DNA of 21,332 nt, taken from a virus. Taxonomy: Duplodnaviria > Heunggongvirae > Uroviricota > Caudoviricetes. A program made the position numbers. The DNA lies in IMG/VR virus record IMGVR_UViG_2563366990_000019, positions 1-21,332 of that record; one strand, 5' to 3'. Positions 9,001-12,000 of this stretch are shown here, piece after piece. Position 1 is the first letter of the stretch. Each line of letters opens with the position of its first letter.

Positions 9001-12000
9001 GATCAACCGTGTTGAGTACCTTCAGCTGCAGGAAGAATTTGCACGCAGAGACGCAGCAAATTCCAGCCAGAATAATGACGCCAAAGATGACCATACAATT
9101 GATTTCGCGGCACTACGCAAACAAGCTGAAGGGTTGATCCTCCAGTTAGCAAAAGGGGGTTACCGGGCAGAAGCTATTGCAATTCTGGAAAAACAGGGAG
9201 CCAGGAAACTTGGTGAAGTAACGGATGAAAATCTCGCTGAAGTAATCACCCTGGCTGAAAAAGCACTGGAGGGTTAATCATGCCAGACGTTCATGCACAA
9301 CTTTCTCCATCATCTGCACATCGTTGGCTAAGGTGTGCGGGTAGTCTGGCGCTGGAGGCCACACAACCGGATAAAGAAACAACTTTTGCAATCGAGGGCA
9401 CTGCAGCGCACGCGCTTGCTGAAAAAGTTCTACGAAACAGGCAAAGCCACCCGGAACACTACGCCGGATGCAATGTTTCTATGTTTCTCGGCTCATACCC
9501 CCTTCGCGAAAATCCTGATGATACATCTGGCCCACAGGTGGATGATGAAATGGTCGAAGCCGTCGGCCGGTATGTTGATACGGTCTGGACTCTTGCAAAG
9601 AATAATGAACTATTGGTTGAACAACGTGTTGATTTCTCACATATAACGGGTGTGGAAGAATCTTTCGGAACTGCCGACGGCATAATCATTGCTGGTAGCG
9701 AATTACAAATCCACGACCTGAAATATGGCAAAGGCGTCCGCATTGATGCAGAACAAAATGAGCAACTACAACTGTATGCTCTGGGTGCTCTCGAACAATT
9801 CAGCATGCTGTATGACTTTGAGACTGTAAGATTATTTATTCACCAGCCAAGGCTCAACCACGTTTCAGAATGGTCTTTAACCGTACAGGAACTTCAGTCT
9901 TTCGGTGAACGGGCACTGGAGGCCGCAACCAGTGCGATCCTTGTTCTCAATATTGCTGAATGCGAAGGCATTGAGACACTACCGCTGGAAAACTTCATAC
10001 CTGGAGAAAAACAGTGCCGCTTCTGTAAAGCAAAAGCTATTTGCACTGCCCAGAAAATGCAGCATTTACAAACAGCGGCCAGCGATTTTGAAGATCTGAC
10101 AAAGCCTGTCAGCGAAATAATCACCAATGCCAGCGCACGTGTACCTCTGTTAACCATTGAGCAGCTTGCGGAGATCTATAGTCAGGCCGACTTTATTGAA
10201 TCCTGGCTAAAGGCAGTACGGGACCGGGTTCACAATGAACTCAATGCCGGACATCCGGTACCGGGGTTTAAACTGGTAACAGGAAAACAAGGTAACCGGG
10301 CCTGGAGTGATGAAGAAGCCGCCCGCGCGCTGCTGAAAGACCAGTTCCGTTATAAAACCGAGGAGGTTTTCGATCTTAAGCTGATTAGCCCAACCAAAGC
10401 CGAAAAACTTATCAAAAAGGCCAGTCCGCGCCGTTGGTCAAAAGTCGAGGCACTGATAACACGAGCTGATGGTAAACCAACCGTCGTTCCCGAGTCGGAC
10501 CCACGCCCCGCACTCAATATCAACCCTGTAAATGATTTCGACGACGTATCCGACGATACGCTCGCCGCAGACCTCATCTGATTAAAGGAGACTTTCATGA
10601 AGATTAAATTAAATAACGTGAGATTAGCTTTTCCTGCTCTGTTTGAAGCTAAAACTGTAAACGGCGAAGGCGATCCGCGTTTCTCCGCAGTATTTTTAAT
10701 GTCTCCCAAACACCCACAACTGGAAGAAATCCGTAAAGCTATGAAGCAGGTAGCGAAGGAAAAATGGGGGGAGAAGTGGGAGTCCATTTATAACCAGCTG
10801 GAGAAAAAACTCAATCTGTGCCTGCATGATGGTGATGAAAAAGCAGAGTATGAAGGCTTCCCCGGCAATTTCTTCCTGAACGCTGCTAACAAAGCGCGCC
10901 CAGCTGTTCTTGATCGCGATCGTTCGCCACTAATTCAGGCTGATGGACGTCCCTATGCAGGGTGCTATGTAAACGCCGTTATCGATATCTGGGCACAGGA
11001 CAATAATTTCGGTAAACGCATTAATGCCTCACTCGGCGGAGTCCAGTTCCTGCGAGACGGCGATGCATTCGCTGGCGGCGGAGTGGCAAGCGCTGACGAT
11101 TTCGACGATATCAGCGAAGGTGCTGATGCTGAAGCACTGATTTAATCCTGCTTCACAGACGCCCGGTTAAACGCCGGGTGTTTTTGCAAAGGGGAATATG
11201 CCCGGAGCTACCTGTATTGTTCTGGTTAGCACCCAGTCGCCCTGCTACCCCGATATTGACTCATCGCCCCCTTCCGGTTTATGCTCACCGAATCTCCCAA
11301 ATGGAGATCGGGATTAGCACCCCGGAAGTTTAAGAGGCGACACCAGACGCGCCAGCGTCTTTTTTATTGTCGCAAGCTTTGCCACGTTCGCATTATGGCG
11401 GGCTGTGTGGGGGCGGAGAAATCCGCGCCGGTTCCTCTTAACCCGGTAGTGCTAACCCCGCACAGTTCGCCACCACGATGATTAGCACCTGATGGTGGCG
11501 ATTAACTCAGTTAAGAGGAAAATCGTCATGAGTACCCAAATCGTATTCAAATCCCACGTTCTCGAAACGATCGAACATAACGGCAAAACTTGGTTTACTG
11601 CGGCTACCCTAGCTACCGCGCTGGAATATTCGGATGCTCGCAGCGTAACTAACATTTACACCCGCAACACGGATGAGTTCACTCTCGGCATGTCCGAGGT
11701 AATCAAAATGGTTACCTCGGGGAATTTACAGGCCTCGCGCCGCATTTTCTCCCTCCGCGGTGCCCACCTGGTAGCTATGTTCGCAACAACTCCGGTAGCA
11801 AAAGAATTCCGCCGTTGGGTGCTTGACCTTATCGAGAAAGAAACCGCTGTTCCGCAATCCTCCACGATACTGGCGCCGCACAGGGAGTGTCTGCCGAAAA
11901 TGGTTTACCATCACCGGAGCAAATACAATCCGTACAGGGCTTATGCATGGGACGGAGAGAAAAGCGTTTACGTCGGGTGCTATCCAACCGTGGGTGAGGC

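Follow-up and report, generated by a model that had tools for sequence, protein, structure and literature searches.

Docking through an acidic C-terminal tail is a known device in DNA replication. [quoted passage not shown] The gp2.5 tail is also required to stimulate the T7 gp6 exonuclease (PMC4124056). The locus described here lies in a 21,332-nucleotide (nt) stretch of DNA, analysed as a whole and called the window (virus record IMGVR_UViG_2563366990_000019, positions 1 to 21,332), in which a DUF2800 nuclease and a T7-type SSB end in tails of this acidic kind. What is new is the extension of such tails to a Cas4/RecB-family nuclease and, in sister lineages, to further DNA-metabolism proteins. 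No earlier description of the shared tail was found in the literature on the Enc34 SSB, on DUF2800/DUF2815 and on acidic or shared C-termini, the coverage of which was incomplete.

The locus resembles T7 in that a T7-type SSB and a second replication protein of one phage carry an acidic, aromatic-bearing tail, which matches the gp2.5/gp4 precedent cited in an earlier, sequence-only reading of this DNA. The SSB is a fold homologue of gp2.5, and in several related lineages the primase-helicase is the second carrier. Unlike in T7, the role of second carrier falls here to a Cas4/RecB-family nuclease, a protein missing from T7. The aromatic residue lies inside the tail (D-D-F-D-D-I), whereas in T7 it is the last residue (..DF-COOH), an extra L-[VI]-COOH tip follows 2-23 residues on, and the Chi-like phages have up to ten carriers.

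The logic of a shared C-terminal tag is also found in phage T4, where the C-termini of gp43, gp33 and gp55 bind one receptor and are interchangeable (PMC2988020). The T4 receptor is the gp45 clamp and the T4 polymerase is a carrier, whereas here the polymerase has no tail and the motif sequences are unrelated. No sliding clamp gene was found in the window; clamp-like proteins occur only in some related prophages. Another parallel is the basic cleft of eukaryotic RPA70N, where an oligonucleotide/oligosaccharide-binding (OB) groove binds acidic-hydrophobic motifs of more than 20 partners, among them ATRIP, RAD9, BLM, WRN, HelB and PrimPol (PMC10479964). Many DNA-metabolism proteins bearing an acidic-hydrophobic peptide are common to both cases, and by analogy RPA70N may serve as a model for the OB groove of the phage SSB as a receptor. 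However, RPA has a dedicated protein-binding OB domain, whereas the single OB fold of the phage SSB also binds single-stranded DNA (ssDNA), and the RPA motifs are little alike in sequence and mostly internal helices. The likeness is one of analogy without homology. The gene order recalls lambda Exo-Red beta and RecE-RecT, in which a 5'-3' resection-type PD-(D/E)XK nuclease is encoded beside an ssDNA-binding or annealing protein, and proteins of the gp2.5 family are classed as annealases (PMC8093625). In lambda, however, a folded C-terminal domain of Red beta contacts Exo (PDB 6m9k), not a peptide present on both partners.

The shared tail of the nuclease and the SSB

The window covers the part of a temperate Escherichia phage genome that holds the early and replication genes. 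The closest complete phage is vB_EcoM-606R2, with an identity of about 97% across 72% of the compared stretch. The genes in question belong to duf2800-gp2.5-polA, a recognised phage module (PMC8093625), and lie on the + strand: the DUF2800 PD-(D/E)XK nuclease gene (9280-10581, 433 amino acids (aa); Pfam PF10926, 1.9e-109, 366.7 bits), the T7-type SSB gene (10597-11145, 182 aa, gp2.5/Enc34 ORF6-like; Pfam PF10991, 8.6e-45), which begins 16 bases downstream, and the family A DNA polymerase (13033-15096, 687 aa; Pfam PF00476; PHROG 17). The gene identities proposed from the sequence alone are borne out by these matches.

The nuclease also matches PF12705 (4.3e-09, 37.1 bits) and PHROG 69 ('exonuclease'). 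Its AlphaFold2 (AF2) model has a predicted local distance difference test (pLDDT) score of 91.8. Foldseek searches with the model found the Cas4-family ACE1 (9iab, 5.3e-05), Dna2 (5eaw, 8.6e-05), AdnA (6ppu, 9.1e-04), Cas4 (8d3l, 9.1e-04) and RecE (3h4r, 4.1e-03), with AddAB, MGME1 and lambda exonuclease among the neighbours. Among 88 sequences (39-59% identity) there is no variation at D133, D146, K148, C19, C249 and C255, and C246 is conserved to at least 90%. The four cysteines, one N-terminal (in ..RCAGS..) and the others in a C-x2-C-x5-C arrangement, are of the iron-sulfur cluster type found in Cas4, AddB and Dna2. Profile and fold thus predict that the gene product is a member of the Cas4/RecB/Dna2-family PD-(D/E)XK nucleases. 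The folded body stops at about residue 410 and is followed by a C-terminal tail, read from the sequence as residues 411-433 (10510-10578, + strand), with the core motif N-D-F-D-D-V (10531-10548, +) and the tip A-D-L-I-COOH (10567-10578, +). The pLDDT drops from 97 to 75, 67 and 61 over the last three blocks, and a short helix is modelled at 425-432.

The SSB matches PF10991 with 153 bits (cut-off 26) over residues 1-175, as well as PHROG 112, the Gp2.5-like SSB/annealing protein. Sequence matches in the PDB are 4jg2, 5odj and 4klk at E = 1e-16 to 1e-14. The AF2 model (pLDDT 84.9) contains a long helix at 42-71, corresponding to the capping helix after strand beta-2 of the family's OB fold, and Foldseek matched it to Enc34 ORF6 (5odl, 6.9e-13, template modelling score (TM) 0.67) and T7 gp2.5 (1je5, 2.1e-07), with bacterial-type SSBs found only at E > 0.1. 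Binding with a preference for ssDNA is known for the homologue Enc34 ORF6 (PMC5686142). A Gly-rich linker and the C-terminal tail make up residues 159-182, AGGGVASADDFDDISEGADAEALI (11071-11142, + strand), in which the core motif D-D-F-D-D-I (11095-11112, +) and the tip E-A-L-I-COOH (11131-11142, +) can be read. The protein ends in ..DDFDDISEGADAEALI, given also as ..SADDFDDISEGADAEALI-stop, and the tail is acidic, with Asp or Glu at 8 of the last 16 residues. In the model, the linker at 159-162 has a pLDDT below 50 and the block holding the motif a mean of 68.

When the last 17 residues of both proteins are set flush at the C-terminus, 8 are identical (D, F, D, D, S, A, L, I), and the Phe stands 13 residues before the end in both (F420 in the nuclease, F169 in the SSB). 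At least 8 identities were reached by 445 of 1,000,000 composition-preserving shuffles of the SSB tail. This confirms the observation, first made in the sequence-only reading, that the two proteins carry the same acidic DFDD tail. In the DNA, the 11-mer GATTTCGACGA is present in exactly two copies in the window, at 10534-10544 and 11098-11108, with a chance expectation of about 0.03 copies and two copies in none of 100 shuffles. The second copy had been placed correctly in that reading, but the first, given as 10537-10547, was wrong by 3 bases. The DNA of the tails agrees at 31 of 54 nt, and the common Ser is encoded by TCC in one gene and AGC in the other. Since the DNA match is confined to the D-F-D-D codons and the Ser codons differ, the likeness of the tails is kept at the protein level. 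A recent gene conversion between the two gene ends was rejected on the same figures, the 31 matches in 54 nt and the use of two Ser codon families.

No third open reading frame (ORF) with DFDD near its C-terminus was found among all window ORFs of at least 90 aa, and a scan of the 56 annotated proteins of vB_EcoM-606R2 detected no tail beyond the nuclease and the SSB. Two other proteins of the window, the PrimPol/VapE-type primase-helicase (4317-6536, - strand, 739 aa; Pfam PF05272 and PF09250) and the SNF2-family helicase of the module (17872-19266, + strand, 464 aa; Pfam PF00176), do not have the tail and end in ..PRSWEKCK and ..MKKRGIA, respectively.

Conservation and joint change of the tails

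A lack of conservation among orthologs had been named in the sequence-only reading as a refutation of its proposal; the alignments showed the tail to be conserved in both families, and the proposal was not refuted. For the SSB, the 120 cluster representatives nearest in sequence (62-98% identity) were taken, with members from Enterobacterales, Acinetobacter, Ralstonia, Aquitalea and others. For the nuclease, 150 of 16,933 matches were taken, each representing a cluster at 50% identity and sharing 39-59% of its residues with the query. An acidic tail of the shared type is kept in all 120 SSBs, and in 115 of them the final 22 residues contain a Phe flanked by acids (consensus ..[DE][DE]F[DE]D[ILVM]..). 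As a profile, the SSB tail reads A-S-E-D-E-F-D-D-I-x-E-G-A, with 13 residues from Phe to end and a terminal D-D-L-V. The penultimate residue is Leu (86%) or Phe (9%) and the last one Val (68%), Ile (13%) or Ala (13%). F169 never varies among 20 aligned homologues and is conserved to at least 90% in a larger set of 93.

The nucleases have an acid-flanked Phe in the tail in 122-142 of the 150 representatives (profile A-x-A-D-D-F-[EDA]-D-[LVI]), and in 82% the position +3 from it is L, V or I. Their last two residues are LV (34), LI (18), LA (10) or LL (8) in a total of 70 of 150 sequences, and the Phe lies between 2 and 23 residues before the end. In the alignment of 88 sequences, with a mean column identity of 33%, F420 reaches a conservation of at least 90%, a level like that of the catalytic D133, D146 and K148.

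The nuclease and SSB genes are nearly always neighbours in 56 diverse genomic loci. Gene starts in these loci are longest-ORF calls, which leaves the C-termini unaffected. In the loci and the window together, 48 SSB ORFs and 44 nuclease ORFs have the core pattern among their 30 C-terminal residues, as do only 14 of about 4,850 other ORFs, several of the 14 being primases. One DUF2800 nuclease, P0204 (L152 103-1329), has a basic end (..VVYKKDKK) without an acidic tail, and the gene next to it is a radical SAM gene, not an SSB gene. This single 3-kb contig hints that the tail was lost when the SSB partner was absent.

The two tails also change together. The mean local alignment score between nuclease and SSB tails is 29.75 within a genome and 24.23 between genomes, with composition-shuffled controls at 18.1 +/- 4.7. 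The within-genome score was reached in 0 of 20,000 permutations, in which the relatedness of the genomes was ignored. The last two residues are the same in both proteins in 23 of 53 genomes, compared to 7.5 expected. As the permutation test is blind to relatedness, discrete joint switches are the more telling evidence. In locus L045 the nuclease and the SSB both end in ..GEAA, in L034 the ends are ..DFA and ..EFA, in L028 ..EFV and ..EFA, and in L054, from a Chloroflexota metagenome-assembled genome, the tails are DDFAGL and DEFSGL.

Among more distant lineages the module was read in 16 phages. In Staphylococcus phage Sa2wa the nuclease ends in ..EDDFDKL and the SSB in ..EDDFDELDTDDEDFL. In Streptococcus phage Javan20 the ends are ..NEFKED (nuclease), ..EDDFATDDDDDFLN (SSB) and ..LEDDFLD (primase). 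The tails of Caulobacter phage RapA are ..VDDFEDLTQQ.. and ..VDDFEDLSDQ.., those of Paenibacillus phage Logan ..LEQEFAN.. and ..LEDEFAD.., and in Pseudoalteromonas phage PHS21 the SSB (..DQFDEVEDSDDF) and the primase (..SDQFDSF) are carriers. The Phe lies near or at the very end in few lineages (Staphylococcus ..DDFDKL, Pseudoalteromonas ..DSDDF). In Salmonella phage Jersey, Leu replaces Phe in all carriers (nuclease ..VTAEDLE, primase ..TTERDLE, SSB ..DDLEDDEE..), and the same holds for E. coli phage SCS92, a Kagunavirus (nuclease ..QVTEEDLE, primase-helicase ..VVTEEDLE, SSB ..DDLEDDEE..). The Chi-like phages Redjac and YSD1 have Trp and ..DDEV instead: the nuclease ends in ..AWDDEDDDEV, the SSB in ..AWDEDEEWEDEV, the primase in ..GEWDDEV and the SNF2 helicase in ..GVWDDEE. 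The same ends in two carriers of one genome (..TEEDLE in SCS92, ..DDEV in YSD1) are consistent with a tail interchangeability like that of T7. Tail-bearing PrimPol/D5 primase-helicases are found in Acinetobacter, Achromobacter, Mycoavidus, Streptococcus and Pseudoalteromonas elements; primase ends include ..SDFADLM (L050), ..QEFADLA (L053), ..AEFADLDAPNN (L016) and ..HADFCELV (L026).

The tag is widespread in Chivirus YSD1, a Salmonella phage (LR026998; loci L153 and L155), where 10 of 71 proteins end in [DE][DE][DE]V or W-D-D-E. The carriers include the primase, gp4, the nuclease, the SSB, the SNF2 helicase, TerS, gp18, an RdgC-like protein and gp59c; three of the 10 are small proteins, and just 1 of the 10 is encoded among the virion genes. 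The YSD1 end is a genome-wide C-terminal tag on DNA-metabolism proteins. The Dam methylase of the same phage ends in ..KMWDEI.

More carriers of the tip or core were seen in Burkholderiales and Acinetobacter prophages (L029 718-1185 and 4253-5002, L030 3463-5352, L016 6824-7114): a small terminase (..SDLV), an N6 methylase (..ADFYGVADLV), a C5 methylase (..YADLI) and a helix-turn-helix (HTH) regulator (..KEFDDLSESKGATA). Related prophage replication modules also encode small beta-sliding-clamp-like proteins (PF02767), which at 170-240 aa match a two-domain clamp subunit in size (L029 14119-14808; L025, L021, L044 and L045; L099/L100/L103 at about 6997-7521). Three of them end in ..[DS]LV (L029 ..ADLV, L044 ..ESLV, L045 ..DDLV). 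The extra Burkholderiales carriers (TerS, two methylases and a clamp-like protein) are no more than suggestive. The tip [DES]-L-[VI] is found on 1.92% of the other genes of related prophages and on 0.79% of shadow ORFs, an enrichment of about 2.4-fold (p = 0.007). As a general tag of prophage genes, [DES]-L-[VI]-COOH was nevertheless rejected, as the enrichment is modest and is gone with a stricter pattern.

A likely common partner and competing readings

A tail which, over hundreds of related phages, is conserved in both proteins and changes in step in them most likely represents a shared handle for one partner. The near-invariant anchor, the variable tether, the joint lineage switches and the several DNA-metabolism carriers point to a tethered motif reaching one receptor. 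A common partner for both tails, as put forward in the sequence-only reading, is therefore a likely explanation that draws on conservation, co-variation, further carriers and the T7 precedent; the other half of that proposal, mimicry of or competition with the host SSB, is not supported and is discussed below. In the reading that we consider probable, though by some distance short of certain, both tails would represent the same short linear docking motif, each on a flexible stretch that follows the folded domain. The motif consists of an acidic core around an anchoring Phe, D-[DE]-F-[DE]-D-[ILV], usually followed by an acidic, hydrophobic tip, [DE]-x-L-[VI]-COOH, whose carboxylate is free. Nuclease and SSB would both bind the same basic, hydrophobic site of a common partner, most likely phage-encoded, and would compete for it or be handed over at it. 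In other lineages the primase-helicase, the SNF2 helicase and further DNA-metabolism proteins would use the same site.

Two candidate receptors, compatible with each other, can be proposed. One is the family A polymerase, by analogy with T7 gp5 and as the only core component without a tail. In every lineage in which its C-terminus was read, the polymerase has a conserved ..GFE.YRYRKD or another non-acidic end. A PDB sequence search with the polymerase found only Pol I/Taq-type chains, over motifs A and B, and T7 gp5 was not among the matches. Conserved basic clusters are present in the palm of the polymerase, but were set aside as a docking patch since they align with residues of Pol I that contact DNA. 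The other candidate is the SSB's own ssDNA-binding groove. In crystals of Enc34 ORF6, 4JG2, 4KLK and T7 gp2.5 the C-terminal tail lies in the OB groove of a neighbouring molecule (PMC5686142), and this packing, together with an AF2 confidence that is higher for the motif than for the linker and the presence of only two carriers here, points to the groove. In such an arrangement the nuclease may keep unbound SSB at hand and pass it on to the single strand exposed by the nuclease, or the SSB may recruit the nuclease. A host receptor is less likely. Binding of the tails to the host beta-clamp, considered in view of the clamp-like genes of some relatives, was set aside, the motif being without a Q-L-x-L-F type signature.

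Several points weigh against a shared docking motif for a phage-encoded receptor. Co-variation indicates a shared receptor, not its phage origin, and the two carriers of this phage fit a simple nuclease-SSB pair equally well. The independent joint tail changes number perhaps 6 to 10, not 53. Some nucleases (Acinetobacter, Staphylococcus) end right after the core, so that they can do without the tip. In AF2 both tails have only moderate confidence (59-75), and contacts are not included in it. Acidic tails can also act in cis as DNA mimics.

This last property underlies the rival that we rate highest, although still as improbable: each acidic tail would fold back on its own DNA-binding surface as a DNA mimic and tune substrate choice, and the likeness of the two would be convergence on an acidic stretch with one aromatic residue. 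Enc34 ORF6 without its tail gains binding to double-stranded DNA (PMC5686142), the tails of T7 gp2.5 and T4 gp32 compete with ssDNA for the OB groove (PMC5686142 and references therein), and the behaviour of these three proteins favours self-shielding, as does an AF2 confidence that is moderate and not very low in both tails. Separate receptors, however, give no reason for the joint ends ..GEAA, ..EEDLE and ..DDEV or for the switches from Phe to Leu and from Phe to Trp. The same tail is found on proteins with unrelated DNA-binding surfaces (TerS, SNF2 helicase, HTH regulators), and the spacing between fold and motif varies in the nuclease, as expected of a tethered peptide. Self-shielding by the SSB can coexist with the docking of both proteins to a common partner. 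The hydrophobic tip (..ALI, ..DLI, ..DLV) could alternatively be a degron for a ClpXP/ClpAP-like host protease, which would limit nuclease and SSB levels in the lysogen or in late infection. Non-polar C-terminal residues are known protease signals (ssrA ..LAA), and the tip frequency on other prophage genes (1.92% vs 0.79%) would agree with this. Yet a degron leaves the best-conserved part, the internal acidic-Phe core, unexplained, as well as the lineages with ends ..EDLE, ..DFDKL and ..NEFKED, and the strongly acidic context is unlike known ClpX C-motifs; we consider it very improbable. An accidental likeness of two acidic disordered ends has a negligible probability. SSBs often have acidic C-terminal tails, and acidic stretches of low complexity are easy to align, but only 4.5 in 10,000 shuffles reach the observed identity, and the motif is conserved in thousands of homologues of both families, co-varies, and is missing from about 99.7% of other ORFs in the same loci. 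The conservation data refute this reading.

Mimicry of the host SSB stands between self-shielding and the degron in probability and is unlikely. E. coli SSB ends in ..DFDDDIPF, a tip that is nearly invariant across bacteria, and SSB clients recognise its terminal Pro-Phe with a free carboxylate. By imitating it, the phage tails would bind, or compete for, exonuclease I, RecQ, PriA, the chi subunit and RecO. The core D-F-D-D-[IV] resembles the first part of the E. coli tip, with which it has the DFDD string in common; both are acidic SSB tails with hydrophobic residues, and in both an acidic, hydrophobic peptide ends a flexible SSB tail, where it serves in bacteria, and may serve here, for docking; a host receptor would also give within-genome co-variation. 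The Pro-Phe end, however, is absent. The tails finish in Leu-Ile (..ADLI, ..EALI) or Leu-Val; among the SSB homologues, a small Acinetobacter-type subgroup (..DPLFA, ..DPMFAGA) is the only one with a Pro in the last four residues, and a Pro-Phe end is found in none. Escherichia and Salmonella phages have three differing shared tails (DFDD..LI here, ..EDLE in Jersey/SCS92, ..WDDEV in YSD1/Redjac). The tail is also found on primases, helicases and TerS, which suggests a phage-internal network. Bacteria have one tail and many client pockets, whereas the phages have many tails, and many phage proteins carrying the tail imply one receptor. Unlike the bacterial tip, the phage tail has no Pro-Phe-COOH, varies between lineages and belongs to a gp2.5-type SSB. 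The likeness to the host tip is therefore generic, one of kind (acidic and hydrophobic) and not of identity. With no Pro-Phe tip, and with lineage-specific tails in the same hosts that track the phage and not the host, the claim that the tails bind host SSB clients or compete with host SSB is not supported.

The docking of nuclease and SSB to one partner can be extended to a lineage-specific tag-and-hub code of the duf2800-gp2.5-polA module, with a tag on every protein that visits one receptor site. We regard this as possible but doubtful. The tags would be DF..LV, ..EDLE, ..WDDEV and others, depending on the lineage, and the receptor would be the SSB OB groove (RPA70N-like) or a patch on the polymerase. 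Competition for the single site would coordinate replication, end resection and recombination, and in some lineages also DNA methylation, packaging (TerS) and even regulators. A tag specific to the lineage would prevent cross-talk with co-infecting or resident relatives.

Neighbouring genes and significance

Upstream of the nuclease gene lies a 300-aa protein (8375-9277, + strand) with no Pfam domain, the last ~100 residues of which match PHROG 408 (E = 3.3e-05). A small protein just upstream of the nuclease has a C-terminal end that looks alike by eye in Jersey, McMelon, Logan, a Blautia phage, RSP and Kc259. The 300-aa protein may be one more conserved component of the module, as yet uncharacterised. 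In the interval from the SSB gene to the polymerase gene, an isrK small RNA (sRNA; 11292-11365, 54 bits) and a C4 antisense RNA (11391-11477, 76 bits) are found directly upstream of a Bro-N-domain ORF (11492-12292). The region 11292-12292 looks like an inserted immunity cassette of the P1/P7-type c4/antirepressor kind. It is missing from vB_EcoM-606R2, and about 195 nt are common to many Shiga toxin (Stx)-converting phages.

Downstream of the polymerase gene, a 160-aa ORF with weak methyltransferase matches (15522-16004, + strand) overlaps the start of the VRR-NUC protein ORF (15878-16273, + strand) by 127 nt; either gene starts were miscalled or the methyltransferase is a remnant. At the window's other end, an STnc100 sRNA (2655-2860, - strand, 162 bits) and a tRNA-Arg(TCT) (2993-3069, - strand) are located downstream of the antiterminator Q gene (3239-3661). 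A 658-aa protein (456-2432, - strand) containing DUF1737, a SASA sialate O-acetylesterase domain and DUF6645 is encoded downstream of the Q gene, the tRNA and the sRNA.

The module is widespread. Homologues of the nuclease were found in 1,746 of 50,697 phage records and in 16,933 representative clusters in metagenomes. The duf2800-gp2.5-polA cassette is among the commonest phage replication/recombination cassettes, while the cooperation of its parts is almost uncharted. A DUF2800 nuclease has been identified as a retron trigger, with its role in the phage life cycle stated as unknown (bioRxiv 10.64898/2026.07.14.737667). A conserved, co-varying peptide would be a direct and inexpensive experimental handle on the receptor and on the coupling of nuclease, SSB, primase and polymerase, and a lineage tag at the C-termini may serve as a rule to predict further proteins of the same machine. 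The tail paradigm of T7 would thereby be extended to a nuclease and to temperate phages across many bacterial phyla, which may have a bearing on recombineering tools derived from gp2.5-type annealases, and on the encounter between phage SSBs or nucleases and the defence systems by which they are sensed as triggers.

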